Of a stretch of 64,000 bases of DNA, positions 5,960-63,900 are shown piece after piece. The notes under the pieces were generated by a model. It made no database searches. It had not been told where the DNA came from and worked only from the letters and a program-made list of their open reading frames with translations. The position numbers were made by a program, and so were the translations under genes. Each line of letters begins with the position of its first letter. The first letter of the stretch is position 1. Origin of the DNA: an uncultured Gammaproteobacteria bacterium (GTDB lineage Bacteria > Patescibacteriota > Patescibacteriia > UBA9934); the NCBI GenBank assembly GCA_964452565.1, contig CAYVLY010000001.1, positions 291,009-355,008 on the forward strand, read 5' to 3'.

Positions 5960-6008
5960 AAGCGCCACCCTCTCGGGGTGGCGTATCGTGCTTTAGTTAA
6001 ACTTATTC

Positions 6009-6031: not shown

Positions 6032-6598
6032 GAAATCCAGCGGCACACCAAATCTAATCCAATCTTCTAGAAATCTTTGATATTCTGAATAATCTCTGAA
6101 CTCATCTTCTATAATAGAATTATCTATAATATCGGAATCTCTAAAAACCGACCTAAGACTCGACCATTTATAATCACGCACAAATCTAAGTGCATCTTCG
6201 ACATCTAAACCACCGCCTTTCCAATTATTTGAAATAAATTTTAGAGGATTCAAATGGATATAACGAAACAGATGCAATAAATAGCCATCACGGTCGACTA
6301 ATTTGCGCTTATATCGTGTCTCAAACAAACTACCGGAACGCTGATTTCGCTTATTGAAATATAATGTGTAAGTAGTCCCTATCTTATGCATAAATGTTGC
6401 AATCCCACCTTCAGACGATTCTTCCAACAAAAAATGGAAATGGTTGTCCATGAGGCAAAAAGCATGGAACCTTACTAACTTTTTACCGTCTTCATATGCA
6501 AAACGCCGCATCTGAGAAATAAACCTTTTGCGATCCTGGTCGTCGTCATAGACTGAACGTTTATCAACGCCACGATTATAAATATGATAATAAGACAT
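6026..6598 (-). CDS. REP-associated tyrosine transposase (RAYT), IS200/IS605-like Y1 transposase (TnpA_REP)
   Basis: HUH motif in ...FCLMDNHFHFLLEE... and catalytic Tyr region ...FETRYKRKLV...; flanked on both sides by the same palindromic repeat. Confidence 0.8.
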   Translation of the reverse strand: MSYYHIYNRGVDKRSVYDDDQDRKRFISQMRRFAYEDGKKLVRFHAFCLMDNHFHFLLEESSEGGIATFMHKIGTTYTLYFNKRNQRSGSLFETRYKRKLVDRDGYLLHLFRYIHLNPLKFISNNWKGGGLDVEDALRFVRDYKWSSLRSVFRDSDIIDNSIIEDEFRDYSEYQRFLEDWIRFGVPLDFS

Positions 6599-6691
6599 AA
6601 AACTCCCATTACGGGAGTGTTTATATACTCATCACATCATCTTCAAAAGCCTTAGTCAACCTTAGCTGTATATAACTTGTTAAACTTGGTT

Positions 6692-6714
6692 AGTTGAACT
6701 AAAATAGTTCAACT
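6692..6714. repeat. REP-like palindrome AGTTGAACTAAAATAGTTCAACT (copy 2, immediately 5' of RAYT)
   Basis: Identical palindrome in direct orientation to copy 1; preceded by the same gttaaacttggttagttgaact leader. Confidence 0.8.
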
Positions 6715-6718
6715 AAAA

Positions 6719-8122
6719 TCAGACAGCCGCGATTGCTTCGGAATACGTGGGAAATGCATGCAACATACTTTCGACCTTATCGAAGCTTACATTCAAATGC
6801 ATCGCAAGCGCCAGCTCGTGAATAACATCTCCAGCATGCTCGCCAACCATCTGCGCTCCCAAAATCCTTCCTGTTCGTTTTTCGATAATCACTTTTAGCA
6901 AACCTTTACGCTTATTCTCTGCGACTGCGCGTCCCAAGGCCCCAACTGGAAATGATCTACTTGCAGCCTTCAGTTTCTTGCCCTTAGCATCTTTCATTGT
7001 AATACCAACCGAGGCAACCTCTTGATGCGCAAATGTCACACATGGCACCACTCTATTATCAATCGACCTCATCTTTCCTGCAGTTGTACACATATTCCAT
7101 GCAACAACCTCCCCATCTCTATGCGCCGTGTGCGTCAACCGTAAAGCACCAGAAACATCTCCTGCTGCAAAAATATGCTTCTGCGAAGTCTGAAGCTTCT
7201 TATTCAAAACTAATTGCCCGCGATCACTTACCCTTACTTTTGCCTTTCCCAACTTCAAATCTTTGATGTTAGATCGCTTTCCTGCTGCAACGATCAGTTT
7301 ATCAACTACTATCCTATTACGAGCTTTTCGACCCTCCTGATACACTAACTCAACTTTTGATCCGATTTTCTTAACTGACAAAACCTTTGACTTAGTCAGG
7401 AGATTCACACTCCGCTTTTTCATATCAGCCTGCACAAGCATTGCTATCTCCTCATCTTCATATCCGAGAATATGAGGCGCTATCTCAAATAAATGCACCT
7501 TTGTACCAATCATGCTAAAGAAGGTCGTGAATTCTACACCAACAGGACCACCGCCTATAATCGCGACTGATCTTGGTTGACTCTTAAGCGATACAACCTG
7601 CTTGTAAGTCAAATACGGTACCTTATCGATTCCATCAACCGGCGGCACCCAATCAACTACTCCGGTTGCTATAACAATCTTCTTTGCCTTGTACTTCTTT
7701 TTACCGATCTTAATCGTATGTGGATCAACAAACTCTGCCGAACCTTTTACATATTCAACACCCTTGTCTAGTAATAACTTTTTCAGCCTTTGACCCTTGC
7801 CAGTCACCGTACTCACAACGGCCCGCTTATACTTCATTGCCTGGGAAAAGCTAAACCCAAGTTCACGTGCGGACACGCCATAAGTTGGAAACTCAAACTT
7901 AGCAGCATGATATGCCTTTGCTGATGTGATCATGGCCTTTGTGGGTATACATGCATAGTTTGAACACTCACCTCCAAGCTTGTCTTTCTCAACCAAAATA
8001 ACACTCTTGCCACGCTCGCGCGCACCCAAAGCAGCGCTCAATCCAGCTGAACCGCCGCCGATAACCAAAACATCAGTTACTATCGCCTTTGATCGAACTA
8101 ACTGTTTTTTCCTCCTTTTCAT
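6719..8122 (-). CDS. Class I pyridine nucleotide-disulfide oxidoreductase (dihydrolipoyl dehydrogenase / mercuric reductase-like flavoprotein)
   Basis: FAD-binding VLVIGGGSAGLSAALGA; redox-active disulfide GGECSNYACIPTK; NAD-binding IIGGGPVGVEF; C-terminal dimerisation HAFPTYSEA. Confidence 0.8.
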   Translation of the reverse strand: MKRRKKQLVRSKAIVTDVLVIGGGSAGLSAALGARERGKSVILVEKDKLGGECSNYACIPTKAMITSAKAYHAAKFEFPTYGVSARELGFSFSQAMKYKRAVVSTVTGKGQRLKKLLLDKGVEYVKGSAEFVDPHTIKIGKKKYKAKKIVIATGVVDWVPPVDGIDKVPYLTYKQVVSLKSQPRSVAIIGGGPVGVEFTTFFSMIGTKVHLFEIAPHILGYEDEEIAMLVQADMKKRSVNLLTKSKVLSVKKIGSKVELVYQEGRKARNRIVVDKLIVAAGKRSNIKDLKLGKAKVRVSDRGQLVLNKKLQTSQKHIFAAGDVSGALRLTHTAHRDGEVVAWNMCTTAGKMRSIDNRVVPCVTFAHQEVASVGITMKDAKGKKLKAASRSFPVGALGRAVAENKRKGLLKVIIEKRTGRILGAQMVGEHAGDVIHELALAMHLNVSFDKVESMLHAFPTYSEAIAAV

Positions 8123-11763: not shown

Positions 11764-11900
11764 CCCAGAAATGCTCTCGCAACTCGTAAACCCCGCACCT
11801 CGTGCAGGGTTTCAAGCATCTAAATTCTCAATTCTGCCACTACCCTTCGACTCGCCTGTGGCTCGCTCAGGATAATAGCCATTGCATTCTTCGCTGGCTA

Positions 11901-13601
11901 TTACCATGACCCCCCACCTCCCCCACCAAATCCGCCGCCAGAAAATCCACCTCCGCCAGAACCTGATGAACTAGGCATTGGTGTTGCTGCAGCAGACTGA
12001 ATAGAACTTGCGATAGAATCAAAGCCACCAGTCATTGCCAAAGCCATAAATGCAGTATCCCCTGCATACCAATCTGGCGCTGCTTGATGAACGTCTTTAA
12101 ATGTCTTTGCCCACTGATCAACATCATCGAATGCAATTGCATACGGCAAGTAATCCGCAAATATATGCTCTTTTTCATGCCATGCAGATCGATATCGTTC
12201 TGCTGTGTGCATGAAATCCTTGAACCCGAGCACTTTTCGACGCATCTCTACGCCCTCCTTTGTCAAAGCCGGCATCAAATATCCAAACACGATAATTGCG
12301 ATCCCTGAAGTTGTTCCAACGAATGAAGTAAACAACCCCAGCACTGCCCCCAACACCACACTAAAAGCAAAGACTGCGACCCCCAAAAAGATGAACAACA
12401 CCTGATAAACAAACGACCGCTTCACATAGTATCCATCACTAACTATCTTTTTGCGAAGTTCGGATTTCATCCTATTCATCTTCTGAGCCGGGATAGTGTT
12501 TTTCAACTTCTTGAGTGGTATCTCAGCCATCTTTCCTTTGAAAATCATTTTGTGAAATTGAGCATGAGCTTTATCAAGGCCCTGAGACCCCTTCAAAGGA
12601 ATCAATGTGACCAAAGGCTTGCGTCGATCTTTTCGATTTTTCTTTTTTGTTTCTGCTTTAATCTTTAAATACCCATCTACTGCCATCTGAATAATCATCG
12701 AGGTTAGATGGTCCCGCTTAAGCCGACCATGCACCAACATGCCAGCATAAACTGATTTGATGCCATTAGGTGGTTCATACTCAGCAATAACAGTCTTGTT
12801 CATCTTTGGATCTTTACCACGCGTGTACCACATCCAAAACGTAAATCCGAGGACTAACAACGGGATCAATGCATACCAATTATCAAACACTAACCAAACA
12901 AATCGATCCCACAGAGTTGGCTCGTAAATCTGACCCTTTGTAAACGCAACTGCAACTGTTAGAAAATCATTTGCTTCGAACTGGGCAACGTCACCCGCAT
13001 CATTTTTCGTACAATTCTGCGCAGTTGATCCGTAATAGCCTGTGTAGCAAGAAAACTGCTCAACCTGCGCCCCATCAGGCAAAATCACAGTGGCACTTGA
13101 GCGATCAATCGGAACCTCCCAATCAGTTCCTGTTACATTCCAATACAACTCATCGTACTCATCAAAGTACAAAAAAACTCGATCAACAGTGTAAGTGATC
13201 TCATAAGTATGCGTTCCTGAGATGTATCTATCTGGATCCCCAATACGTAGGCTTACATCGCTATATCCATACGAATAGTTCACCTGCGCGGGCTGTCCAT
13301 CCTGTTGGATATTCAAAACATCAAAATCAGTCTTAAAGCTATTGCCATACGTATCTGTGTATCGCACTGGTATCTCTCGATAGATCCCATGCTTTTGAAT
13401 ATCAAAAGTTACATCAATTGTCTCAGTAACAGTTATCGATGCATCCTCATGGATCTCGATAACTGAATCGAAAGAATCAATCGACCATGTATAAGCTTGA
13501 GCGTCCGATGTTAATCCAAAAGCGAAAAGTATCGCAAGGAATGCGATACTAATACATGTAATTTGCCTTGTTTGAAACATGCTCTTCAAAAGTTGTAGCA
13601 T
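11901..13601 (-). CDS. DUF2207-family membrane protein with a C-terminal Gly-rich tail
   Basis: Signal or TM helix, large extracytoplasmic domain, TM segments, and the C-terminus ...SSSGSGGGGFSGGGFGGGGGGSW typical of DUF2207. Confidence 0.7.
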   Translation of the reverse strand: MLQLLKSMFQTRQITCISIAFLAILFAFGLTSDAQAYTWSIDSFDSVIEIHEDASITVTETIDVTFDIQKHGIYREIPVRYTDTYGNSFKTDFDVLNIQQDGQPAQVNYSYGYSDVSLRIGDPDRYISGTHTYEITYTVDRVFLYFDEYDELYWNVTGTDWEVPIDRSSATVILPDGAQVEQFSCYTGYYGSTAQNCTKNDAGDVAQFEANDFLTVAVAFTKGQIYEPTLWDRFVWLVFDNWYALIPLLVLGFTFWMWYTRGKDPKMNKTVIAEYEPPNGIKSVYAGMLVHGRLKRDHLTSMIIQMAVDGYLKIKAETKKKNRKDRRKPLVTLIPLKGSQGLDKAHAQFHKMIFKGKMAEIPLKKLKNTIPAQKMNRMKSELRKKIVSDGYYVKRSFVYQVLFIFLGVAVFAFSVVLGAVLGLFTSFVGTTSGIAIIVFGYLMPALTKEGVEMRRKVLGFKDFMHTAERYRSAWHEKEHIFADYLPYAIAFDDVDQWAKTFKDVHQAAPDWYAGDTAFMALAMTGGFDSIASSIQSAAATPMPSSSGSGGGGFSGGGFGGGGGGSW

Positions 13602-15839: not shown

Positions 15840-15881
15840 AATAGGAATATTGTATCGATTTGAGGGTATTCTGTCGAATTC

Positions 15882-15930
15882 TTAAGTTAGTTGAACTAAG
15901 TTAGTTGAACCAAAATAGTTCAACTAACTT
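15882..15930. repeat. REP-like element, dimeric copy (gttagttgaactaagttagttgaaccaaaatagttcaactaac)
   Basis: Same AGTTGAAC...AGTTCAACT palindrome family, 9 kb from the RAYT, between two convergent or tandem genes. Confidence 0.7.
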
Positions 15931-15963
15931 TTTAGGATCGATTTATTTCGAATACGGAATGCA

Positions 15964-18377: not shown

Positions 18378-18491
18378 TGTCATCCCGGCCCCTGAGCCGC
18401 CTGCCGGCAGGCAGGGGATCCATCGTTGCTGTCATCCTGAACGAAGTGAAAGATCTACTCGAGTAGATTCTTCGCTACGCCCAGAATGACA
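18378..18491. repeat. Structured multi-hairpin element, family TGTCATCC...GAATGACA (diverged, longer copy D)
   Basis: Shares the terminal inverted repeats tgtcatcccggcc...ggggatccatcg...gaatgaca with copies at 50289, 55439 and 58811. Confidence 0.6.
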
Positions 18492-30990: not shown

Positions 30991-31092
30991 CAAAAAACCG
31001 GTTAACATCTCCATCTCGAGCGACCGAAGGGAGTCGAGAGATCCCTCGGCTACGCTCGGGATGGAAAGGCTTGACCGGCTTTTTTTAATTTC

Positions 31093-39693: not shown

Positions 39694-39918
39694 CTCCCCC
39701 GGTTCTATCCATCCTGAGCGAAGTGAGCTATAAGCGAACGAAGTCGAAGGATCTCTTAAAGCTTACTTCTTGAGATCCCTCGGCTCACCTCAGGGCTCAC
39801 TCGGGATAGAATGGTGAATAATGAAACAAAATCGTTGTAATAGCGTATAATGAAGTAGTAAGCATAATACGCGCTTATACCAAAACTAACTGACGCAGAG
39901 CTTGTTGAACGTGCTCTT

Positions 39919-44873: not shown

Positions 44874-45613
44874 AGATTTTTATAAGTATAACTCAAAATG
44901 CACAAAGAAAAACCAAAACTGTGTATGCCCCCATCAGAAAACACTTGGAATCGAGGTCAGTTTGGACGCATGGGAAGGTGGCGCCGGAGCCGTACTAGAA
45001 TGTACGGTGACTAGCCAGCAGGGACCCATAAGTTCAAAATGGTCCGATTCCAAATGTTTTCATCAAAACAAAAACCTGTGCACTCTTGGATACACAGATC
45101 TTCATTGGGATCACGAGAGGAAAAGATCGGGCTTGCAATGAATCGCACACCGTTGCCAAGAGACAGCCGCGGACTCTCACCGCGTTCCAGAACTCATCCC
45201 GTCAAACGGGACTCGTGACAACGGTATTTACTCATAGTTCGATCAAATTGTCAACAGCAGCAAGCTCTCACCCACACCACGGATGCTTAAACTTGAATTC
45301 GGTCCCCAGCCAATTTTTCCCAGCTAATCTTTACCTCGGGCCTGTCACGAGCACATTCATGCTTACCCCCGGGCAGAAAGATGGAATAGCATTTTGATAT
45401 CCAATTTCTCCTTAGATAAAAATTGGATCTCCAAAATGCCCGTTCGTATGCCTGAGGTATACCTGGACGAGCGCAGTATGGGCCAACACCCTTTCTTTCC
45501 CCGGTTTCTTTGGGTGAACAAAGAAACCGGGTCTGGGGGTCCAGGGGGACGAAGTGCCCCCGGGTGCAACCTGGCTTCGAGAGATCCCTCGGCTACGCTC
45601 GGGATGGATAAGG
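44874..45613. other. 740-bp gene-free region with elevated GC and many local hairpins: candidate structured RNA (identity unresolved) plus a terminal long palindromic repeat
   Basis: No ORF with coding character; GC clearly above the neighbouring genes. A gaaaagatcgggcttgc stretch loosely resembles the RNase P P4 strand, but the other RNase P motifs are not found. Confidence 0.3.
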
Positions 45614-48415: not shown

Positions 48416-48785
48416 AGTGGATTGATTATATCGCAGAACACAGAACCCAGACAACAGAACCCAGGCTCAGCAAGTTTGCTACGAGCAAACACGGGTGTGT
48501 CCCCAGGTAAGAAAACCGGATAAAGAGAAGACCGCCACGAAGACGATCTTCGCGGCGGGAGCCGTGCACTAAGAGTGAGGACGTCGGTTCGCTCTTACCG
48601 TACCCAGGAGCCGAGCAAACGGCCACCAAAAGTCGGGAATAACCTCGTATTTCTACTTGGTTAGCATTTTTTCGCCATTGCCCAAACCGGTTGTGCACAT
48701 TGAAATATGCCACAAATTCCAATTCTTGTCAACCCAAAACAAAACAACGCCTCTTTTGAGACGCTGCTTTGATCGAATGAATCGA

Positions 48786-49770: not shown

Positions 49771-50262
49771 ATGTGAATGAGTTAGTCCCGTGGGGTTTAA
49801 AAAACCACGGCCTTAACGCCGTGAAACAATGAGATCTGATCAAAAGTTCGATCAAATAGCCTCGATAGGACTTACGCTCTTGCAAGCAACCTATTGTCTT
49901 TAGCATTAAGTTGTCAGAAGTATAGAATATTGGCCAAATTATGTCAAGAAGCAGAACGCTCGCCCTTTCGGACGAGCAGTACGTGTACGTGTGGCGCTGA
50001 GGCTACTCAGAGCAGTACTAGCTTTTGATGCCAAACAGCTCAGTGATGATGCCGACAGCCTCTACCTTGGCCCGTTCCAGGTCCCCATGCAGTGTATACT
50101 GCTCCCAGAAAAGCCGCATCAACAAGCAACGCAAGCACATATTTTCATGACCACAAGCCATGTCTCTTTCCTTTCCCTGTGACAAGTAACACTAGAGGTG
50201 GCAATTAAAATAGCACCTATCCCCTTTCTTGTCAATTATCTGAGGTCTAAGTGCTTATCAAT

Positions 50263-50390
50263 CCGACCAAAGGCTTCGACTTTCCTCTTGTCATCCCTGG
50301 CTACGACCAGGGATCCATCGATTATCGAACTCTATAGTTGATGGATTCCCGCTTTTGCGGGAATGACAATAGATCAAAAACTTTGGTCAG
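50263..50390. repeat. Island hairpin repeat, long form (the structured element at 50289..50368 is inserted in the repeat loop)
   Basis: atccgaccaaaggcttcgactttc[ctcttgtcatcc...gaatgaca]atagatcaaaaactttggtcag. Confidence 0.7.
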
Positions 50391-50467
50391 AGCGGCGCGT
50401 TTTCCTTGCGCCGCACGTGACTATTCTCGCGCGGGAGGGAGAATAGTGTCGCTAGGCCTCTTGGGGC

Positions 50468-51652
50468 CTAGAAGAAGACTGTTGGTCCAACCATCTCATC
50501 GTGCGCGATCATATGGTAGTCAACGCCATCATCGGAAACCATGATCGAGTCTTCCGGAACCGTGACAGTCACTCGATCATCACCACTCGCAGCAGTCGCT
50601 CCAGTGCCGTCCACCGAGAACGTGACTCCGAGGATATCTTCGGCATCTACATTGATCGGCGCGTACGAAACGCCATCAAAGCTTGCGGTATGCGTACAGA
50701 TCGTTAGGATGCAAGTATCGCCGGGATAGCACGGGCCATAGCCATCCTCCATACATGCACCGCTTTCTACCGCTGCCTCACCAAGCAAGGCGCCGGAGTC
50801 GGTGTCGTACATGTACACAGAGCTCAGCCCTGCACACCATCCAGTGTCATCGTAGCTCCAGCAATCGACAAACACGGATGTGGGACTGATCTGGAGGTCA
50901 GAGCATTCATGCAGAGTGCTGAAGTTCGTATTGAGCGCATCGACGATTCCGGGAGTGGTTGAGGTATCGATCGTATACACATCGTCGACGACCAGCTCAT
51001 TGCTCATCTCGACCTCGGTCCCATCAGCCAATTCGACATCCCACCGGCAGGTGTTGTCCACATAGTTCATGAAGTCCGGGCTTTCACCGCCGTTGTTGGC
51101 CAGGATCACGACTCTGTCTGCAGTTGAGACGATATCGGATGGATCCAGGATGTCGAATGCGAATCCGACTTCGACACGGATGAACTCTGTGACGTCCTCA
51201 GAGATGTCGCACACCAGGTTGAGTGCTGTGGCGCGACGTCCAACGTTGAACCCACTATCAAGCAACAGGTGCTCATCAAGGATTATCTCAGTTGGCGGCT
51301 CGACAGTGCTGCCAGTCATGGCGTTGGACAGACGACAGCGCTGAACATACTGACTCAGATCAGTGAAGCCACGGTCGACTCCATCCATGCCGTAGTCGAT
51401 CAGTGCCGTTGGGCTCACGCTGAACACGTGGATGGGCCTTGGGTCTCCTGACCCAACCTCTGCTCCACGTTCTTCAACCTGCCGCAAGGTCAATGTACCG
51501 AAGTACACATTCTCCTGACCGGGCTGCACCTCTACCAATCCAGACCCCGGGCCCTCGAACTTGACCTTGAGGATCGAAGCATGCGAGCTGTGTGGCAAGA
51601 GATAGCCCATGAGGGCAACGATGAGAACAAACAGAATATTTGCGAAACGCAT
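50468..51652 (-). CDS. secreted Cys-rich hypothetical protein (island cassette)
   Basis: Signal peptide MRFANILFVLIVALMGYLLPHSSHA; 394 aa with diverse composition. Confidence 0.55.
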   Translation of the reverse strand: MRFANILFVLIVALMGYLLPHSSHASILKVKFEGPGSGLVEVQPGQENVYFGTLTLRQVEERGAEVGSGDPRPIHVFSVSPTALIDYGMDGVDRGFTDLSQYVQRCRLSNAMTGSTVEPPTEIILDEHLLLDSGFNVGRRATALNLVCDISEDVTEFIRVEVGFAFDILDPSDIVSTADRVVILANNGGESPDFMNYVDNTCRWDVELADGTEVEMSNELVVDDVYTIDTSTTPGIVDALNTNFSTLHECSDLQISPTSVFVDCWSYDDTGWCAGLSSVYMYDTDSGALLGEAAVESGACMEDGYGPCYPGDTCILTICTHTASFDGVSYAPINVDAEDILGVTFSVDGTGATAASGDDRVTVTVPEDSIMVSDDGVDYHMIAHDEMVGPTVFF

Positions 51653-52014
51653 AGCGTTTCCTTCCGGCCTTAGCGGCCTTGCATAGTACGGAATGCACTA
51701 CATCGGACGCGATGTCCGATCAAAGAGTTCGATGATAGTTGAAATGTCTAATCGTTCGGCCAAAGGCCTCACTTGTTGAAATTGTTGACGTTGCTTATCG
51801 CACCGTAAACATCTTCAACAACTTAAACAGTTTAAACATTCCTATCAAACACTTAAATCAGACCCCCTGCACTGGAGAGAGACCGGTGCAGGGATTCTGT
51901 AGTACTAGATAATTAGTACGTCCAAAAGACTCGAAATTATTCAAATACTTTGGATGAACCCCCTGCCGACGAAATTCGGCAGGGGCCAGGACTTGGGTTT
52001 CACGGATTTGGAAT

Positions 52015-52054
52015 CCGACCGAAGGGTTCAAGTTTGCTTAAACACTTTGGTCGG
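52015..52054. repeat. Island hairpin repeat CCGACCGAAGGGTTCAAGTTTGCTTAAACACTTTGGTCGG
   Basis: 10-bp stem CCGACCGAAG/CTTTGGTCGG (one G-U pair if RNA); loop carries the T-loop-like GGTTCRA. Confidence 0.75.
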
Positions 52055-52101
52055 ACGATGCGCTCAGATGAACGCACCGTAGAACGGTGTGAGTAGTCGG
52101 C

Positions 52102-52293
52102 CTAGCCGTCTGCGAACACCAGGCACCTGTCCTTGGTGGCGTCGGGGTTGAGGTGCTTCCGCAGCGCGGGATCGAAGGCCACATTCTCGCAACCTTCCGG
52201 GATCTCGTACTCGCCCAGGCTGACACCGGTGCACCCCGTCGCGGAGAAGCATGCGATGAAGGCCAGGGCCAGGCTGATGATGGTCTTACGCAT
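52102..52293 (-). CDS. small lipoprotein, 4 Cys (island cassette)
   Basis: MRKTIISLALAFIACFSATGC lipobox. Confidence 0.5.
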   Translation of the reverse strand: MRKTIISLALAFIACFSATGCTGVSLGEYEIPEGCENVAFDPALRKHLNPDATKDRCLVFADG

Positions 52294-52349
52294 GATGAAC
52301 TCCGTGGAGGCGCGGCAAAGCCGCTAGGGTTGAAGGTATCACTCTCGAA

Positions 52350-52389
52350 CCGACCGAAGGGTTCGAATTACTTCAAACACTTTGGTTGA
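52350..52389. repeat. Island hairpin repeat (ccgaccgaagggttcgaattacttcaaacactttggttg)
   Basis: Same family. Confidence 0.75.
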
Positions 52390-52454
52390 CCCCCTGCCGC
52401 GTATGTTGGCAGGGGCGCTCACGCGAGTCGCGTGGCGTCGTAGTAGTTGTGGGC

Positions 52455-52886
52455 CTACCAGCCCTGGAGCTGCTTGATCGTGAGAGCGGTTTCCTGTGCG
52501 CACACCAGATGAGGGTGCGTGATGAACGAAGCGGTACTCTGGTCCATGATCCTCATGAGCGCCGCCAGCAGATCGCACGGCCTGCCACCGAAGTGCAGAC
52601 CCACAGGACTCACGGCAGCCAGGAACATGCCCAGCAGCCACACCTCGCCGTCAGCGGTGCTGGCACTGTAGGTGATGGTCCAGGAACGTGGATCGTCCAG
52701 GTGTCTCACCACCCGGAGGCGTGATTCACCGGAACCTAGGTACGTCCTCCGGTCACTGGATCCTGACCAGGTGTCCCGCCCCATCAGCTCGCTGAGCCTG
52801 GCGATGTCTTTGGACAACACCACCGTGCTTATCTCGATCTGGCGGGCAAGGAATCCCCCGAAGAGCCTCTCAAAGATACCGAACAT
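52455..52886 (-). CDS. hypothetical cytoplasmic protein (island cassette); start at MFGIFERLFGG
   Basis: ORF between two repeat copies; ORF-track start 52931. Confidence 0.45.
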   Translation of the reverse strand: MFGIFERLFGGFLARQIEISTVVLSKDIARLSELMGRDTWSGSSDRRTYLGSGESRLRVVRHLDDPRSWTITYSASTADGEVWLLGMFLAAVSPVGLHFGGRPCDLLAALMRIMDQSTASFITHPHLVCAQETALTIKQLQGW

Positions 52887-52942
52887 GGCATCTCCTCTCA
52901 CCTGGCTCTGGGGCCAGGGCTCTGGTTTCACGGATTTGGAAT

Positions 52943-52982
52943 CCGACCGAAGGGTTCGATATTCATCAAACGCTTTGGTCGG
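52943..52982. repeat. Island hairpin repeat (ccgaccgaagggttcgatattcatcaaacgctttggtcgg)
   Basis: Same family. Confidence 0.75.
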
Positions 52983-53197
52983 TCCCGCCCAGACATTATG
53001 CGGGAGACGAAGAAAAGGGACTACAGGCCAAGCAATCTACAGATACACTCGACGATGACCAACCCAACCAGTATACCAAGGCCCAGGCAAACCAGATCTC
53101 TGTAGAAATTGGTACGGGTGCGACTATCAAACAAAGATACCTACTTCCACCTGGCGTCAACCAGGAGTTATGGGGTTTCAAGAATGGACACAGCGGC

Positions 53198-53374
53198 CTA
53201 CTTGGGCTTCCATTCTCCAGGACAGACACCCTGACGCTCGTACAAGGTGATTGCAGTGCTGCAGTACTCCGCCAACTCCTCCTTATTCATCATGATCGGA
53301 GGCTTGGGAAGGTACCACAACGCAAACACCGCCAGCGCCAACAGCGCACATCCAGCCAGCAGTTCTCTCGACAT
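53198..53374 (-). CDS. small secreted protein of about 58 aa (island cassette; below the ORF-track size cutoff)
   Basis: Manual translation MSRELLAGCALLALAVFALWYLPKPPIMMNKEELAEYCSTAITLYERQGVCPGEWKPK. Confidence 0.4.
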   Translation of the reverse strand: MSRELLAGCALLALAVFALWYLPKPPIMMNKEELAEYCSTAITLYERQGVCPGEWKPK

Positions 53375-53448
53375 TCCAACTCTCTTTCACCTAGTAAAAA
53401 CCGGGGTCAGAGGTGAGGGTTCGGATTTGCGATCCTATTTGACGCATA

Positions 53449-53488
53449 CCGACCAAAGGCTTCGAATTGTTTCAAAAACTTTGGTCAG
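53449..53488. repeat. Island hairpin repeat (ccgaccaaaggcttcgaattgtttcaaaaactttggtcag), followed by a shared roughly 45-nt module gtaggtgaggcttgtcgtcaattcgacactacctc
   Basis: Same family; the extra module is also present after the 54067 copy. Confidence 0.7.
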
Positions 53489-53541
53489 ACCCCCCGCCCA
53501 GACATTATGCGGGGGACGTAAGACGTAGGTGAGGCTTGTCG

Positions 53542-54012
53542 TCAATTCGACACTACCTCGAGGGTGGGATCTTCGGATTCGTGTTCTTCTCCATGGCGTG
53601 GCATGATCGCCATACCCAGGAGAATCCACGCGATCCACGGGAAGAGCCACTCGAACGGCCAGAGCACCCAATCCGCCAGGAACTGACGAAAAGGAGTCCG
53701 ACTCGGACAGCCCTGAGTGAACCACTCGATGGCGAAGAACCGAGGTTCCGTATCCCGATTCATCTTGCCCTGATAGTGAGAATCAGCCCATCCGCATTGC
53801 CACCACACACCACCACGATCACGTTCTAGGCGGCAGCTGGCGTAGCGGTCGTAACCAAGCATGAGCGAGGTTATGGTAGCTGCGTTCTTCTCGCCATCAC
53901 CATCGATGTCGAGGATAGTCCTATCCACACAGCCAACTGCACACGACCCAAGGGACAATCCAAGGGCGATGAAGAAAGCTACATTGAAGATGATTCCTCT
54001 GAGTCGCTCCAT
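53542..54012 (-). CDS. lipoprotein with a C-terminal TM helix (island cassette); start at MERLRG
   Basis: MERLRGIIFNVAFFIALGLSLGSC lipobox; Trp-rich C-terminal helix. Confidence 0.5.
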   Translation of the reverse strand: MERLRGIIFNVAFFIALGLSLGSCAVGCVDRTILDIDGDGEKNAATITSLMLGYDRYASCRLERDRGGVWWQCGWADSHYQGKMNRDTEPRFFAIEWFTQGCPSRTPFRQFLADWVLWPFEWLFPWIAWILLGMAIMPRHGEEHESEDPTLEVVSN

Positions 54013-54066
54013 AGCAACTCCTTCCACCAGATTTCTCTGGGTTGAAGATTGGAGTTCGGATTGGAT

Positions 54067-54107
54067 CCGACCGGAGACTTTGAAATACTTTCAAAATCTT
54101 TGGTCAG
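54067..54107. repeat. Island hairpin repeat (ccgaccggagactttgaaatactttcaaaatctttggtcag)
   Basis: Same family, diverged loop. Confidence 0.7.
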
Positions 54108-54175
54108 ACCCCCCACCCGAAAACAATGTGGGGGTCAAAGACGTGGGTGAGGCTTGTCGTCAATTCGACACTACC

Positions 54176-54643
54176 TCAGGGGCTGGTGCTGGTCCTGCAC
54201 TGCATCGAATAGACGATGAAGGTGAACAGCGCTGATACCAAGACGCAGACCTGGCAGGTCCTGCCCAGGAAAGTCTCAAACGGCATCGTGCTTGGAACGT
54301 AGATCACGAGGCCAGGGTAGATGGCTACCACCAAGCACGTGAAGATGCCAAGTGCCATCACAGTAGTGTACATGGCGCAGAACATACACATCACGTTGCT
54401 GGTGAAGGACTTGCGTACGCCATCCACGAACAGCAAGCCTGTTCCGAGAAGGCAAAGCACGACGCCAACAAGGAACGATACGAAGTACACGAGATACATC
54501 GGTATATCTTCCACCTGGCTGTAGCCAGGAGTTAAGGGTTCAAGCTCGGATTCATGATCCGACCAAGAACCTCGAGAGAGTTCAAGATTCTTGGTCGGCG
54601 GCGGCCTGTCGAGAGTATCGACTTCCGCCTTGTACGTACTCAT
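54176..54643 (-). CDS. 4-TM membrane protein (island cassette)
   Basis: Four hydrophobic helices; Cys-rich. Confidence 0.5.
   Translation of the reverse strand: MSTYKAEVDTLDRPPPTKNLELSRGSWSDHESELEPLTPGYSQVEDIPMYLVYFVSFLVGVVLCLLGTGLLFVDGVRKSFTSNVMCMFCAMYTTVMALGIFTCLVVAIYPGLVIYVPSTMPFETFLGRTCQVCVLVSALFTFIVYSMQCRTSTSP
54559..54598. repeat. Island hairpin repeat, diverged copy lying inside the 5' end of the 54176..54643 ORF (ccgaccaagaacctcgagagagttcaagattcttggtcgg)
   Basis: Same stem; loop variant. Confidence 0.5.
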
Positions 54644-54649
54644 ACGTAG

Positions 54650-54757
54650 TCAACAGCCCTGCAGGAAAAGCAAGGGGAAAATCATGGCGACTATCACCAC
54701 GCCCATCATAATCAGTGCCCAGCTCACCTCATCCATTCCACTTTTTTGGGAGTCCAT
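54650..54757 (-). CDS. putative 35-aa membrane peptide (island)
   Basis: Manual translation MDSQKSGMDEVSWALIMMGVVIVAMIFPLLFLQGC. Confidence 0.25.
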   Translation of the reverse strand: MDSQKSGMDEVSWALIMMGVVIVAMIFPLLFLQGC

Positions 54758-54828
54758 AGGACTCCTTTCCCCGGCTTATTGCCGGATGCGTCTCTAGGAC
54801 GCCTTCTGAATTGACTCTTTTACTATAA

Positions 54829-54869
54829 CCAACCGAAGGGTTCGATTATTCATCAAACACTTTGGTCGG
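54829..54869. repeat. Island hairpin repeat (ccaaccgaagggttcgattattcatcaaacactttggtcgg)
   Basis: Same family. Confidence 0.75.
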
Positions 54870-54915
54870 ACGATGCACCCGGGTGGTGCATCGTACGGGA
54901 CGAGGGGGTTGTTGG

Positions 54916-55362
54916 CTACCAGTGCATGAAGTCGTGGATGCTCTGGGCCCCTGTGCGAACGTGTGTGAACAGCTGCAGGAGATCGCCATTCTCACAGCGC
55001 ATCCAGCCCGAGATCAAGCTCCTGAGCCTGGACATACGCTGACTAGACATATTCGTGGGCTTGGTGTCTCCCAGGGCGTTGAGCAGCACGGGCAGCACGG
55101 GCGCTTCATATACAGTCGGCTGGCCCCACAGGAAGTACTCTAGCTTCCAGGTGCCATCGGGCTGCTGCTTGGCCTCGAGGAACTCGAATCCCTGCGGCCA
55201 CGCGAACCTGAGCGCCTCCTGGCCGTCTTCCTGCTCAGACTCGATGGTCATGCGGCGCTTGGCGCTCTCATGGGCTCGGGCCATGGCCTCAGCCGAGACG
55301 GTCGCCTCCACTTGAACTGACCGACTCTTCCGCTTCGCGCTTGGACGAGTAATCACACTCAT
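54916..55362 (-). CDS. hypothetical protein (island cassette)
   Basis: ORF between repeat copies. Confidence 0.45.
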   Translation of the reverse strand: MSVITRPSAKRKSRSVQVEATVSAEAMARAHESAKRRMTIESEQEDGQEALRFAWPQGFEFLEAKQQPDGTWKLEYFLWGQPTVYEAPVLPVLLNALGDTKPTNMSSQRMSRLRSLISGWMRCENGDLLQLFTHVRTGAQSIHDFMHW

Positions 55363-55413
55363 CTCCTCTCACCTGGCTCTGGGGCCAGGACTCTGGTTGA
55401 ACGGATTTAGAAT

Positions 55414-55537
55414 CCGACCGAAGGGTTCAACTTTCTCTTGTCATCCCAGCCGTAGAGCCGGGATCCATCGTTTATCGAACTCGATAGTTGATGGATTCCT
55501 GCCTACGCAGGAATGACATATTAAACACTTTGGTCGG
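55414..55537. repeat. Island hairpin repeat, long form (the structured element at 55439..55518 is inserted at the same loop position as in 50263..50390)
   Basis: ccgaccgaagggttcaactttct[cttgtcatccc...ggaatgaca]tattaaacactttggtcgg. Confidence 0.75.
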
Positions 55538-55582
55538 ACGATGCACCCGGGTGGTGCATCGTACGGGAACGGGGAGTTGGGG

Positions 55583-55906
55583 CTACCGCTGGGCCTTGGC
55601 GTGGGCCTTGCGGTCGGCGCCCTGGCGCGGCTGCTGGCCGGACTTGCCGGGCTGGCGATCGGGGCTCTGGGCCTTGCGACCCTTGGGCTGGTTGCCCTGC
55701 CTCGGCGCCTGTGCCCTGGTCTTCGGCTCGGGCTTCTGCACCTCAACCTCCACCTCGACCCGGTCCGTGATGGACTCGGGCTCGGTGAGCTGGTCGACGA
55801 TGCCGTAGACCACGAGGCCGGTGATCGAGGTGATGCCGAGGCCGATGGCCAGCAGGATGCCAGCCACGATGGCTATGGCAGATGCGGTTCTCTGGTTCCT
55901 GGTCAT
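55583..55906 (-). CDS. small membrane-anchored protein with a basic Gln/Pro/Lys-rich tail (island cassette)
   Basis: TM helix AIAIVAGILLAIGLGITSITGLVVYGIV. Confidence 0.45.
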   Translation of the reverse strand: MTRNQRTASAIAIVAGILLAIGLGITSITGLVVYGIVDQLTEPESITDRVEVEVEVQKPEPKTRAQAPRQGNQPKGRKAQSPDRQPGKSGQQPRQGADRKAHAKAQR

Positions 55907-56043
55907 TTGAGTTCCTTTCTCTTGACCGGGTTGTACTCGCTCGAGAATCTCGATACTGGATCAAGAGTCTTGAGCGAGCGGCACATTCGATGCACCACAC
56001 GGAAGTTGGTTGTGAAGAAGGGACGGAGGAGGTTGATGTGGGG

Positions 56044-56823
56044 CTAGTCGATGAAGAACAAACGCTGACCCGGGGTGGGCAGGCCATCCACGGTGAGGCC
56101 ATCGAGGAGCTGGCCCTCTGCGGTCTCCCAGTGGAACTCGGCCGGCCAGCTGATGCTGGTGACCGTGTCGTCCTGGCAGTCCTCGGAGGTACAGGGGCTC
56201 GGAGCCGCCTCATAGGCCATGCGGAACCACTTGGTCTCACCGGCCACGAGCTCCACATCGATCTCGGCAACTGCCTGCTCGACGTCCAGGTTGGGACCGT
56301 AGCTGCAGTCCACCCACTCGGCCTCATCGTCGTCGATGGTGTAGAAGTCCCAGTTGGCTTCCAGCGTCATCCACTGGTCGTAGCCGTCCTGGTCCTCACC
56401 CATGTACTCGTAGAAGCCGAAGTAGAGGGAATCGCCCTGGTTGGAGCAGGAGTTCCAGTCCGTGTAGCCATAGTCCGTGGTGCCCATGCGGAACGGCACC
56501 TGGGTGAGGTAGGCATCCACGTTGGCAGTGAGGCTGAACTCGATGACCGGGACCCTGTGGCCCAGTGCGAAGTACTCGCCCTCGACCTCGATGTAGTCGA
56601 GCTCGATGCGAGGCGAGACCTCCTCTTCTTCGACACCCTCTGTCTCCTGGCTCTCCTCTTCACTGCTGCCGATGTCGTCGACGTCCTCGTCGTACTCGTA
56701 GACGTTGGCATCGTTGTCCTCGATCTGTTCTTCCTGGCTCTCGACTTCCGGGCACTCGCAGGGAGCGCCGCAGGCGATGGAGAGGAACAGGGGGGCGAGG
56801 ACGGAGGGGGTGGAAAAACGCAT
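56044..56823 (-). CDS. acidic lipoprotein (island cassette); start at MRFSTPSV
   Basis: MRFSTPSVLAPLFLSIACGAPC lipobox; long Glu/Asp-rich linker; aromatic-rich C-terminal domain. Confidence 0.5.
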   Translation of the reverse strand: MRFSTPSVLAPLFLSIACGAPCECPEVESQEEQIEDNDANVYEYDEDVDDIGSSEEESQETEGVEEEEVSPRIELDYIEVEGEYFALGHRVPVIEFSLTANVDAYLTQVPFRMGTTDYGYTDWNSCSNQGDSLYFGFYEYMGEDQDGYDQWMTLEANWDFYTIDDDEAEWVDCSYGPNLDVEQAVAEIDVELVAGETKWFRMAYEAAPSPCTSEDCQDDTVTSISWPAEFHWETAEGQLLDGLTVDGLPTPGQRLFFID

Positions 56824-56887
56824 TACGCGCTCCTTCTTGCTTGGGAAATGCGGATGAGCCGCTTGGGAAAGGTAGTTTCTATCGTAT

Positions 56888-56927
56888 CCGACCGAAGGGT
56901 TCAAGTTTACTTAAACGCTTTGGTCGG
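56888..56927. repeat. Island hairpin repeat (ccgaccgaagggttcaagtttacttaaacgctttggtcgg)
   Basis: Same family. Confidence 0.75.
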
Positions 56928-56972
56928 GCGGCACATCAGAGACGTACCGCGTAGACGAAGGGGGTTGAAGGT

Positions 56973-57131
56973 TCACTGTACCCTCTCGAACCGGGTGGTC
57001 GAGTGGGTGATGTCGTTCACGACTGCATCGATCGCTGCACTTGCCCTGCTCACGCCCTTGAGGGCGCAGATCAGAAGCACCGCGATGAATGCAAGACGGA
57101 AAAATGGAACTTCGACGATATTTTCGAACAT
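56973..57131 (-). CDS. putative 52-aa membrane peptide (island)
   Basis: Manual translation MFENIVEVPFFRLAFIAVLLICALKGVSRASAAIDAVVNDITHSTTRFERVQ. Confidence 0.3.
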   Translation of the reverse strand: MFENIVEVPFFRLAFIAVLLICALKGVSRASAAIDAVVNDITHSTTRFERVQ

Positions 57132-57265
57132 GGGACTCTCCGGTTGGTGGGTTGTTCTCTTCCCAGACCTTTACAAAGTTCTTGAACTAATGTTCCAGGT
57201 CTTTGCTAAGGTGCGGCGCGTCGATCAGATCAACGCGCCGCAACGAGGATGAAGGGACGGTATCG

Positions 57266-57727
57266 CTACAGCCCCATCTCCTTCAGCTCCCGCTGGTACT
57301 CGCGGCACTGGCGACGCTGGGCCTTCTTCTCGAAGTCGCGACAGCTGAGCTGCGCGAGCTCCGTAGTCCAGGCGCTGAGCTCCTCCTCGAGGGTGGGTTC
57401 GGGCTGGGCCAGGGTCTCGGGGCCGATGCTGTCGGTGCGGTACACGCCGACGGCCTCGATCTCCTTGGCCAGCTGCGCATCCTTCCAGGCCTGCCAGGCC
57501 TGGATCTCGGCGGCCGTGGGGCCCTCCTCCTTCTGCACCTCGACCTCGACGGTCTCGGCGGGCAGGAAGTCGGAGAGGGTGGCCAGCGGGGCTTCGACCA
57601 GCTCGGGCGCTGCCTCGGCCTTGCCACCGTGCACCAGGTGCATGACACCCAGACCGGCGGTGAAGCCGATGGTGAGCAGGACGAGCAGGGCGGCGAGCAG
57701 GGCGGCGGCGATGGCGATATACTTCAT
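57266..57727 (-). CDS. secreted hypothetical protein (first island cassette at the right border)
   Basis: Signal peptide MKYIAIAAALLAALLVLLTIGFTAG; alternative overlapping minus-frame ORFs are Arg/Pro-rich GC artefacts. Confidence 0.5.
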   Translation of the reverse strand: MKYIAIAAALLAALLVLLTIGFTAGLGVMHLVHGGKAEAAPELVEAPLATLSDFLPAETVEVEVQKEEGPTAAEIQAWQAWKDAQLAKEIEAVGVYRTDSIGPETLAQPEPTLEEELSAWTTELAQLSCRDFEKKAQRRQCREYQRELKEMGL

Positions 57728-57961
57728 GATGTACTCCAGGATTCTCGAATTGGGGTTGGGGACTTGGTAGACGAGATCTGAACACTTTTTATATTCAGGT
57801 CTCGTCTACCAAATGTAGCTTGTTAAAGAAAACCGGCTATCTTTCTTGATTTAAGAGAGATAACCGGTTTTCCACCACAGATCACCATATAACAGGATCA
57901 CTGTGATAATGCTTCTTAACCCAGAAGCTGGGGCTCTCTCTGATTGTGAAGTTCCTTGATC

Positions 57962-58050
57962 TTTACATGTAGTACTATAGCACAAAATCGACCTTTTGTC
58001 AAGGCCTAAGGCCGGATTTTAGGCTAATTTTAGTCTATTTTAAAAGGCTG
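57962..58050. repeat. AT-rich conserved motif actatagcacaaaatcgaccttttgtcaagg... at the right edge of the GC-rich island (paralogous copy at 63822..63900)
   Basis: About 27/31 identical core with the copy at the window end, plus shared ttttagGCTAattttag blocks. Confidence 0.55.
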
Positions 58051-58088: not shown

Positions 58089-58799
58089 CTAGCTCAAAAC
58101 GGTCCCCTTAAACCCCTTATTTTGAACTAATTTCCCTATATTCCCAAAATCTTTACCATTAACAATAGCCACCTGCATCTTATCACGCTGACAAAGCCTT
58201 GAAGCCACTGGATCAAATGGTGCAGATTTGCCTGGATGCCAGTCATCTCCCACCATTTTTCGATAATCGCCCCAAGAAAGCTCATCTAAAGGCTTTGCCT
58301 TTGGATTCTTGCGTGGATCCTCAGTATATACATAATCAATATCTGAAGCATTGATCACGCTTTTAACCCCCAATCTCTTTGCCATTCGGCACGCGACATA
58401 GTCTGTGCTCCACCCAGGCTTCCAGCCAGCTCCGATCAGCACTTTACCCTTCCACCTCTTTGGCAACCTGGTCGGATCCTTGATGACCACTGGGTGTGCC
58501 ACTTCTCGAAAAATAGTTCGAAGCAAGTGTGCATTAAGCCGTGTTCCATGAATACCAAGCCAGTCAAGGTCCTCTGCTTCTATTGATTTTCGAACTCCGC
58601 GTGCTGCATCAATATAGTGCCTAGCAGTCTTCCCTCCTCCTGTCACAATCAACAGCTTTCGACTCTTCTTAACCTGCGAATCTACAAATCTCTTTAACTT
58701 TTTTAAAAACTCAACATCTGGTCCTCCATTAGGAACTATCAGCGATCCACCAACCGAAATTATGATTGGTTTGTTGTTTTGGAGTGTGAGTTTGGGCAT
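58089..58799 (-). CDS. pyrH: UMP kinase (amino-acid kinase family)
   Basis: ...IIISVGGSLIV... and ...LLIVTGGGKTARHYIDAAR...; start at MPKLTLQ. The ORF-track start at 58898 would read through the repeat element. Confidence 0.75.
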   Translation of the reverse strand: MPKLTLQNNKPIIISVGGSLIVPNGGPDVEFLKKLKRFVDSQVKKSRKLLIVTGGGKTARHYIDAARGVRKSIEAEDLDWLGIHGTRLNAHLLRTIFREVAHPVVIKDPTRLPKRWKGKVLIGAGWKPGWSTDYVACRMAKRLGVKSVINASDIDYVYTEDPRKNPKAKPLDELSWGDYRKMVGDDWHPGKSAPFDPVASRLCQRDKMQVAIVNGKDFGNIGKLVQNKGFKGTVLS

Positions 58800-58810
58800 A
58801 TTCACTTTCT

Positions 58811-58893
58811 TATCATCCCGGCCATAGAGCCGGGATCCATCGTCATACCAAATTCGATAGTTGATGGACCCCCGATTGGGGTCGGGGTGACAG
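58811..58893. repeat. Structured multi-hairpin element, TGTCATCC...GAATGACA family, copy C, immediately upstream of pyrH
   Basis: tatcatcccggccatagagccgggatccatcg...cgatagttgatgga...ggggtgaca. Confidence 0.65.
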
Positions 58894-58906
58894 AGCAACG
58901 AGCCAA

Positions 58907-59733: not shown

Positions 59734-60594
59734 TTATCTAATTGGCTCAACGAAAATAACTACTTTTGCCCCGTTTGCAGGATTGCCATTATTCCAGTCT
59801 CCCATTGCGTTCATTATAACATCAATTTCATACACATACCCTTGTCCATTGCGAGTTCCGGGATCATTGGTAATCCACATGTCATCTGTATACCCACGCA
59901 AGACCAGCATGTGATAAAGCGGCCCTTGTCCTGTAAAATTCGGATTTCCCAACTCACGTCCTGCTGCGGGAACTACGACTGGATACCCTGCTGCGATCTG
60001 ATCTTTAATCTGATCAACTGTTGGGTATTCAACAACATAGGCATCAAGCCCGTAAAATCCCTCGATAAAATCAACTGTTTCTTGTGCAGTAGTATCTAGA
60101 TAATCTCCCAATGTTTTATTTTGATAATCTATGACCTCTAACAAGGCTATATCTGCGACTTCAGCATCAACCAAGCCAGATGCATAACCTTCAAAGTAAA
60201 GCCAAACCATGTAAGCTGAGGCCTCCTCGCAAGCTTCCTGATATGGCAAATCCCAATTCGCATGTGGAGCCTGAGGAGTAAAAGGCACTGCCAGGTTGAT
60301 CTGATCTGGAGTTAGATCCTCAGATTCGATCGAATCCTCGATCATCTCGACGTTAGGAGGGATCTCGGACGACTCTTGGTCGTCCGGCGTCTCAGCCTCA
60401 GCAGATCCTTCGACTCGTCCTTCGGACTCGCTCAGGATGACGGCTTCTGGAACGCTACTATCCCCTGCCGTAACCTCCTCAAAACTAACCTCCTCAACTT
60501 CAACTACTGGTTGCTTATCAAAATCAAGAACAATAAAAGCGCCAACCACCAAAAAGATGATTATAAAAACTCCGACTAAAAGTCTATTACGCAT
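59734..60594 (-). CDS. membrane-anchored C39-like cysteine peptidase domain protein (Peptidase_C39_2-like)
   Basis: N-terminal TM; ...VPFTPQAPHANWDLPYQEACEEASAYMV... resembles the C39_2 catalytic Gln/Cys region. Confidence 0.45.
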   Translation of the reverse strand: MRNRLLVGVFIIIFLVVGAFIVLDFDKQPVVEVEEVSFEEVTAGDSSVPEAVILSESEGRVEGSAEAETPDDQESSEIPPNVEMIEDSIESEDLTPDQINLAVPFTPQAPHANWDLPYQEACEEASAYMVWLYFEGYASGLVDAEVADIALLEVIDYQNKTLGDYLDTTAQETVDFIEGFYGLDAYVVEYPTVDQIKDQIAAGYPVVVPAAGRELGNPNFTGQGPLYHMLVLRGYTDDMWITNDPGTRNGQGYVYEIDVIMNAMGDWNNGNPANGAKVVIFVEPIR

Positions 60595-63821: not shown

Positions 63822-63900
63822 TGAAACTATAACACAAAATCGAACTCTTGTCAAGTGCTTGCTTGACTTTTTAAACTAAAATTAGCCTATTTTTAGCCTT
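63822..63900. repeat. Second copy of the AT-rich conserved motif (actataacacaaaatcgaactcttgtcaagtg...) at the right edge of the second GC-rich segment
   Basis: See 57962..58050. Confidence 0.55.

Follow-up and report, generated by a model that had tools for sequence, protein, structure and literature searches.

The element that recurs in the window (the whole stretch of DNA analysed here, 64 kb from a Candidatus Uhrbacteria (Patescibacteria) bacterium) is a pair of hairpins of a kind already described. Judged by its sequence, each half is an NTS/SRM-type hairpin, the local member of a known and widespread repeat family, and the two halves face each other in inverted orientation. That this might be a new or orphan family was considered and rejected, each half being of the type described as a single-stranded DNA target of Ssn GIY-YIG nucleases (Chenal et al. 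2025, PMC11893778). The family, the hairpin, and the enzyme are already published, and what is new is the Patescibacteria host, the doublet as the usual form of this subtype, and the existence of natural pairs of filled and empty sites. I propose that the doublet is a REPIN-like element that acts as DNA and has no gene of its own, its single-stranded form being recognised by an Ssn nuclease whose gene lies elsewhere, a reading that I consider somewhat probable.

A profile built from the copies finds three full copies of about 80 nt and one partial copy in the 64-kb window, and no further ones. The full copies match at 55439-55518, 50289-50368, and 58811-58892, with E values of 1e-21 to 1e-24, and the partial match, at 18378-18427, covers model positions 1-34 (E 0.012). 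Exact matches to the core word GGGATCCATCG fall at these four sites and nowhere else, and when one mismatch is allowed there are five matches where 0.9 are expected, a number reached in none of 100 shuffles. All three full copies are inverted doublets read on the plus strand. The reference copy, at 55439..55518, scores 81.7 bits against the profile; that at 50289..50368 is 83% identical to it; and the third, at 58811..58893, lies outside the GC-rich island that holds the other two, between a holin-like gene and the start of pyrH. So it is that all four sites put forward in the preliminary description hold real related sequence, as judged by the word count against shuffles and by the profile, but only three of them (50289-50368, 55439-55518, and 58811-58893) are full copies. 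The fourth, 18378-18491, was taken to be a diverged copy. Since it matches the profile only partially, at 18378-18427, it is better seen as a mosaic, something more than diverged. It begins with half an element (18378..18429, plus strand), namely a left unit with a 15-nt CCTGCCGGCAGGCAG hairpin breaking up its own, and then GGATCCATCGTTGC; past the CCATCG junction, and fused to this half, comes a doublet of 62 nt (18430..18491, plus strand) whose hairpins are of a second subtype (TGTCATCCTGAACGAAGTGAAAGATCTACTCGAGTAGATTCTTCGCTACGCCCAGAATGACA).

The second subtype, GTCATCCTGAGCGAAG...CGAAGGATC, is found at other places in the window: 11830-11910, 31000-31070, 39705-39815, 45577-45608, and 60395-60445. 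It often comes with a GCGAAGC mini-hairpin and occurs as singlets, doublets, and nested forms. The copies at 31034-31065 and 45577-45608 are identical, and the copy at 60395-60445 lies within the called N-terminus of a Peptidase_C39_2 ORF (59734-60594).

Each full element consists of two hairpin units, inverted with respect to one another, with their TGTCAY heads outward. The layout of a unit is (T)GTCAY, an 8-bp stem starting with AT, a loop of 4-6 nt, the return stem, C, and finally CATC. The sequence of the left unit is TGTCAT-CCCNGS-loop-SCNGGG-ATC-CATCG on the plus strand; that of the right unit, taken on the minus strand, is TGTCAT-TCCYGC-loop-GCRGGA-ATC-CATCA. The two are connected by a short linker, itself palindromic, CG-TTTATCGAAYTCGATAG-TT, and the junction of the units in this subtype is GGATCCATCG...GATGGATYC. 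In the reference copy, the left unit occupies 55439-55469 (TGTCAT-CCCAGC-cgtaga-GCCGGG-ATC-CATC, plus strand), the palindromic linker 55470-55489, and the right unit 55490-55518, where the minus strand reads TGTCATTCCTGCgtagGCAGGAATCCATC. The heads of the six units in the full copies are TGTCAT in four cases, TATCAT in one, and TGTCAC in one, and in all six units there is a C directly 3' of the palindrome (...GGGAT-C-CATC, ...GGAAT-C-CATC, or ...GGGGT-C-CATC). Facing units and a palindromic linker make the whole a near-palindrome, and each DNA strand presents one forward unit. The pseudo-palindromic character of the element can be seen also in the profile search, since every full copy matches the profile on the reverse strand as well, with E values of 1e-8 to 1e-11.

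The preliminary description gave the element a fold of three hairpins closed by a terminal stem. That is indeed the minimum-energy RNA fold of the copy at 50289-50368 (-41.6 kcal/mol, z -7.3 relative to shuffled controls), but the copy at 55439-55518, because it is a pseudo-palindrome, folds as one long near-palindromic hairpin (-43 kcal/mol, z -8.5). The terminal stem TGTCAT/ATGACA does pair, but its makeup requires correction: each inverted unit contributes its conserved 5' head as one side of the stem. With DNA parameters, the inner doublet and the outer hairpin of the island are predicted to fold, as single strands, into a nested structure in which the outer stem is kept.

How closely do these units resemble what is known? 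The NTS of Neisseria is CGTCATTCCCGCGMAVGCGGGAATCYRG, and the Ssn-related motif (SRM) has the pattern HGTCWYN(0-2)YYVSBRHN(0-5)WNVSBRGN(0-2)RNCYNB (PMC11893778). Units in the window depart from this pattern at 0-2 positions, as compared with 3-8 for 300 random 39-nt windows. One of the six units, the right unit of the copy at 50289 (50341-50368, minus strand), matches the published pattern exactly, where 0.29 exact matches are expected, and the other five miss by one or two positions (the two units of the reference copy by 1 and 2). SsnA is a GIY-YIG protein of 94 aa that binds the hairpin as single-stranded DNA only, does not bind RNA, and makes its cut upstream, at a distance of a few bases; binding depends most on the C that directly follows the palindrome, and cleavage depends critically on the three bases that precede it (PMC11893778). 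Both features, the three bases and the 3' C, are present in every unit of the full copies, the one with the TATCAT head included.

The likeness to NTS/SRM extends from the GTCAT head, the 8-bp stem beginning AT-YCC, the short loop, and the C after the palindrome to the habit of the repeats, which are multi-copy and intergenic and which flank small GIY-YIG genes (in the present case in two metagenome loci, L065 and L143, discussed below). There are differences as well. The host is a member of Ca. Uhrbacteria (Patescibacteria), a phylum without mention in the main text of PMC11893778; fusion into inverted doublets is nearly the rule for the units, with CCATCG...GATGG as the conserved junction; five of the six are off the published pattern by 1-2 positions; and no ssn gene is seen within the 64 kb. 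I found no report in the literature of SRM repeats or of integron-like arrays in Patescibacteria. There is also a resemblance to the dRS3 and NIME sequences of Neisseria, which share the core palindrome ATTCCC-N8-GGGAAT (the right unit of the copy at 50289 is ATTCCCGCAAAAGCGGGAAT) and which likewise form intergenic repeat mosaics. NIMEs are segments of 50-150 bp bounded by dRS3, whereas the element in the window is two facing units around a 20-nt palindromic linker.

A scan of metagenomes with the left unit returned at least 120 loci, mostly of 60-70% GC. Among the 116 complete matches listed, 94 have an inverted partner no more than 120 nt away, as against 22% of control positions, which shows that for the SRM subtype considered here the inverted doublet is the usual form and the single hairpin is not. 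When a consensus was folded from the four close copies, the hairpin on the right came out misaligned, and for that reason covariation was counted by position from the base of the stem. Positions 6, 7, and 8, left free in the search pattern, form Watson-Crick pairs in 58, 61, and 64 of the 70 distinct units listed, and in 33, 50, and 28 of 70 when partners are shuffled; position 9 is at the random level. Second units that were located by their flanks alone behave in the same way: of 55, the numbers paired at positions 3, 6, and 8 are 47, 45, and 50, compared with 25, 29, and 23. Expressed as a range, the free stem positions are Watson-Crick in 83-91% of cases compared with 40-71% after shuffling, several pair types are represented, and the stem ends exactly at position 8. 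In the four close copies themselves, two stem pairs are changed on both sides. The stems of the structure that the preliminary description supposed to be shared do, then, covary, from which it may be concluded that the hairpin is under selection as a structure. The unpaired bases of the junctions are conserved as sequence.

Species-representative genomes searched with the pattern GGGATCCATCGN{10,25}GTTGATGGA gave 40 matches, of which about 36 are chance occurrences within genes. The other four are true doublets of the same tripartite architecture, from Halioglobus, Dongiaceae, and two genomes of Elusimicrobia; they share the junctions but not the stems. Patescibacteria are absent from these 40 matches, and the doublet pattern found no match in viral contigs. 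Scanning loosely for any hairpin preceded by GTCAT lacked the specificity to be of use. Contigs that are Proteobacteria-like, from Elusimicrobia, or of other kinds thus far apart show the doublet architecture again, and with the window the range of the SRM/NTS family now extends to Patescibacteria.

Then there is the matter of the linked gene. Two of the metagenome loci (out of at least 120), both with a GC content of 42-43%, carry an ORF of about 95 aa that belongs to the GIY-YIG family (Pfam PF01541, E 6e-16 for L065 and 1e-16 for L143). In L065 the order between 778 and 1197 is unit, GIY-YIG ORF, inverted unit, with terminal repeats that extend 19 nt past the hairpin, and, so arranged, the block has the look of a doublet that carries a gene. 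In L143, full doublets stand on both sides of the ORF. The protein has at least 7,983 homologues, and NCBIfam offers no informative family for either of the two. A motif regex found no GIY-YIG ORF in the 64-kb window (about 9% of the 709,517-bp contig), in the loci of relatives (about 30 kb in the case of GCA_018644925.1), or in the four genome loci that contain doublets. Short tandem repeats border the block in L065 (740-780 and 1195-1290), CTCGCTGC at one end and GATGACAGTGAGGCCGTG at the opposite end, and one more hairpin unit adjoins it.

I propose that events may proceed in the following way. Whenever replication, repair, or the uptake of DNA leaves the region single-stranded, its hairpins would fold and be bound by a single-strand endonuclease of the Ssn family, a GIY-YIG protein of about 95 aa, which would nick a few bases 5' of GTCAT. 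The cognate nuclease would be encoded elsewhere in the genome. The doublet would then be the gene-less counterpart of SRM-ssn-SRM units, with two extended terminal repeats abutting without cargo. Copies would be gained and lost in intergenic DNA, and one lodged at the tip of a hairpin in the island would persist because it leaves the stem of that hairpin intact. This DNA-level reading is favoured because the conserved bases are those that the enzyme needs, the motif is present on both strands, and a GIY-YIG gene is the sole gene found between such units. Against it stand the absence of GIY-YIG ORFs, by the motif regex, from the window and from about 30 kb of the relative, the exact match to the published pattern of just one unit in six, the co-orientation of all copies with transcription, and a purine tract, AGAGAAAG, that is conserved to one side of the copies and for which this reading does not account. 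For Ssn itself, cleavage and an effect on transformation have been demonstrated, and a likeness to insertion sequences raised (PMC11893778); I infer the presence of an Ssn protein in this genome, its part in moving doublets, and the biological role.

A bolder version of the idea is that SRM doublets are truly mobile miniature elements, driven by an Ssn-type GIY-YIG protein, which would amount to a second, enzyme-independent invention of the REPIN lifestyle, and that in this lineage of Uhrbacteria they enter the single-stranded apical loops of attC-like hairpins in a cassette array. I put this forward as a tentative suggestion, one that I think doubtful. If it is true, then the filled and empty paralogous hairpins described below would be the first mapped insertion junctions for this class of element. 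Whether NTS/SRM repeats spread as mobile DNA was left open in PMC11893778, and the present loci supply clean natural comparisons of two kinds: filled and empty copies of one hairpin repeat within one genome, and presence and absence at two orthologous spacers between relatives.

The alternative that survives best is that the element acts at the level of RNA, either as a cis-acting structure in transcripts (a stabiliser, a processing site, or an attenuator between cassettes or upstream of pyrH) or as a small RNA gene. The strong folds predicted for the two island copies (-41.6 and -43 kcal/mol, z -7.3 and -8.5) speak for this, and all copies, including that of the relative, are oriented the same way relative to co-directional genes. 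Copies in the island are probably transcribed, since there is a sigma-70-like promoter at the head of the island (58002 to 57974, with 11 matches out of 12). There is also the example of FtrB of Francisella, an sRNA of 115 nt visible on Northern blots, which has an SRM-like hairpin (probe GAGATTCCCGCCTACGCGGGAATGACTACCGACG; PMC3091763). But the unpaired bases that are conserved are exactly those needed by a nuclease confined to single-stranded DNA (SsnA, as noted, does not bind RNA), and the inverted doublet keeps the motif on both strands, as one expects of a signal in DNA and not in RNA. The element has neither promoter nor terminator of its own. A search of Rfam gives nothing at gathering thresholds, and at relaxed E-values FtrB (RF02748) alone appears, with scores of 24.8 bits (E 1.4) and 24.5 bits where 66 would be required. 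That sub-threshold match is explained by FtrB itself having such a hairpin, GTCATTCCCGCGTAGGCGGGAATC; otherwise FtrB is a Francisella-specific transcript, and its deletion is without phenotype (PMC3091763). With the motif on both strands, no promoter or terminator, and FtrB so far below threshold, the small structured RNA gene family suggested in the preliminary description finds no direct support, and I judge a role in RNA to be unlikely. The RNA-level and DNA-level readings can, in any case, coexist.

Two of the full copies reside within a GC-rich island (window 50200-58050) that lies between rplJ and pyrH, with 52-59% GC in a genome of 43%. It is an array of small ORFs separated by hairpin repeats of 17 bp with two conserved mismatches. 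That the host belongs to Ca. Uhrbacteria is indicated by its proteins: the L10 cluster contains one named from that taxon, and the nearest gpmI with a name is 82% identical. In a related Ca. Uhrbacteria genome, GCA_018644925.1, whose host genes show 77-82% identity at the DNA level, the same GC-rich island is found at the same locus, between pyrH and rplJ (L166, 3600-9800), and hence the island is resident in the host lineage. The preliminary description had seen in the presence of the element both inside the island (50289 and 55439) and outside it (58811 and 18378) a link between island and host, and both the distribution and the link hold. The relative's island has the same family of hairpin repeats and mostly different small ORFs; one ORF is common to both (window 56075-56525 with L166 5817-6243, 66%). 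Pfam has no matches for the ORFs of the island, nor for a 344-aa gene beside the island in L166.

Empty hairpins in the island have a 17-bp stem with two 1x1 mismatches and a 4-nt loop. Two hairpins of the window carry the doublet at the apex, as had been noticed, in the same apical position: that at 55412..55540, with arms at 55412-55431 and 55522-55540, and the last in the island, at 50259..50390, of the arm subtype CCGACCAAAGGCTTCGA...CAAAAACTTTGGTCAGA. When filled and empty paralogous hairpins are compared, the difference is a single apical block of 86-92 nt, without target duplication. The flanks of the filled hairpin at 55412 are 91-92% identical to those of the empty hairpins at 52941 and 54828. 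The filled hairpin at 50259-50390 differs from it in arm subtype and has a closer empty relative of its own. The flanks shared with empty hairpins and the separate arm subtypes together favour at least two insertions.

These same comparisons bear on a second alternative, that the filled hairpin is an inherited long form, a variable apical structure passed on by duplication and descent. One of the hairpins in L166 has a doublet at its apex, in the same orientation and 83% identical to window 55410-55536 (over 128 nt), and its stems differ from those of the window copy in compensating ways. There are thus three filled hairpins, two in the window and one in L166, sharing position and orientation, and the identity of 83% is near the 77-82% of the host genes, as descent would have it. 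Other hairpins in the island also have long apical extensions, of unrelated sequence. Against common descent stand the occurrence of the same element outside any hairpin at pyrH and in unrelated phyla, the flanks just described, and the two filled hairpins in the window, which are of different arm subtypes, each with a closer empty relative. It is possible that there was one long form with later homogenisation of the arms, especially for the pair shared by the window and L166, but as a general account the inherited long form seems to me quite improbable.

Is the element, then, site-specific, as the preliminary description suggested? Insertion is favoured by island paralogues that differ by one block, but specificity for such a site is not general. 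Among doublets from other metagenomes, four of 93 (4.3%) have outer stems of at least 8 bp running from flank to flank, compared with 0.75% of re-paired flanks. With just four of 93 inside an outer palindrome, a general preference of doublets for the tips of hairpins was rejected. It is more economical to suppose that the insertions seen at the apex are those that the island hairpin tolerates.

Apical blocks of other kinds occur in the same array. A second insert of about 100 nt, unrelated, AT-rich, and palindromic, is found at 51743-51854 of the window, at the same apical position of other hairpins, and again at L166 5287-5397 and 8704-8790, with 76-78% identity between the two genomes. A third kind of long apex is found at L166 9627-9745.

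The boxes R'' and R' of integron attC sites are RYYYAAC and GTTRRRY, and the base of the island hairpin, GTCCGAC...GTCGGAT, is one compensated change away from attC boxes. The identification of the island hairpins as integron attC sites was nonetheless rejected, as the boxes are off consensus and no integrase was found nearby. The arrangement recalls the IS1111-attC group and the group IIC-attC introns, mobile elements that target the attC hairpins of integrons, in that an element sits inside a hairpin-forming repeat, resembling a recombination site, of a cassette array. Those elements have an enzyme or ribozyme of their own and recognise attC, whereas here there is an 80-nt gene-less doublet in a host hairpin that is only attC-like and has no integrase nearby.

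Outside the island, the element is absent upstream of the relative's pyrH (L166 1560-1640), and it is absent from the relative's spacer between gpmI and the membrane protein gene, where the surrounding AT-rich sequence can still be aligned; the whole 114-nt block of 18378-18491 is missing from the orthologous spacer in L173. In L176 (5594-5693), from a relative whose gpmI is 83% identical, the spacer between gpmI and the membrane protein gene contains a different palindromic element of about 85 nt, CAGTATGCAGTAGGCAG...CTGCATACTGCATACC, which occupies the spot of the hairpin mosaic of the window. The Logan assemblies of SRR8146440 and SRR8146441 end at 18384, 52025, and 57959. These points coincide with the element near gpmI and with the two borders of the island, and repeats that break short-read assemblies behave in this way.

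Differences of this sort might be expected also of a classical MITE, with terminal inverted repeats and a DDE transposase to move it. The element does have inverted ends (TGTCAT...ATGACA, which extend further if imperfect pairing is allowed), it is 80 nt and intergenic, its presence varies between relatives, and independent assemblies break at its copies. Yet the borders of the four copies and of the filled hairpins show no target-site duplication, not even a direct repeat as short as 2 bp; the ends are SRM heads, conserved across phyla together with internal junctions, unlike those of a MITE specific to an IS; and the sole gene-carrying unit found with such ends encodes a GIY-YIG nuclease. 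With neither a target-site duplication nor a DDE transposase, the label of MITE given in the preliminary description is apt in the REPIN-like sense only, and a MITE of the classical kind is highly improbable. The head of a REP is a tetranucleotide of the GTAG type. A strict REPIN, moved by a RAYT (a Y1 HUH transposase), has in its favour the two inverted palindromic units and spacer by which REPINs are defined (PMC3116915, PMC3337134), but it is scarcely credible here given the GTCAT head in place of a GTAG-type tetranucleotide, the linked gene in related contigs, which is GIY-YIG (PF01541) and not Y1, and the lack of any Y1 transposase in Pfam tables for about 40% of the window (8.5-21.1, 45.6-52.0, and 58.0-64.0 kb). 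The lack of target duplication and the different enzyme family are what disfavour both the DDE-type MITE and the RAYT-moved REPIN.

The gene-less, REPIN-like DNA element proposed here nevertheless has much in common with the REPIN/RAYT system (Bertels and Rainey 2011, PMC3116915). In both, an inverted palindromic pair with a spacer forms a long hairpin, the element is non-autonomous, and the gene for the enzyme is itself flanked by units. The differences are the enzyme, Y1 HUH there and GIY-YIG here, the head motif, and the mobility, which for SRM doublets is putative.

There is a practical side to these repeats, which seed spurious ORFs in gene calls as well as breaking short-read assemblies. 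The clearest case is pyrH, for which the preliminary description had recognised a spurious N-terminal extension of 33 aa, and correctly so: the ORF at 58089-58898 starts at a TTG inside the copy at 58811-58893, and the true ATG (MPKLTLQ...) is at 58799, minus strand. The relative's pyrH product is 236 aa. On the plus strand, spurious ORFs at 50338-50544 (MMDSRFCGNDN...) and 55488-55808 (MMDSCLRRNDI...) begin in the right-hand unit, and their peptides, of the 'RFCGND' type, exemplify the false gene calls to which these hairpins give rise.

Two other repeated words were seen in the window. A 30-nt promoter-like word on the minus strand, CTTGACAAAAGGTCGATTTTGTGCTATAGT, occurs at 57974-58003, which is the head of the island, and at two further intergenic places, 63826-63855 and 48704-48733, with copies 90% and 70% identical. 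A palindromic word, AGTTGAACTAAAATAGTTCAACT, is found in three intergenic regions, 5996-6037, 6679-6734, and 15876-15931, and has the look of an operator.
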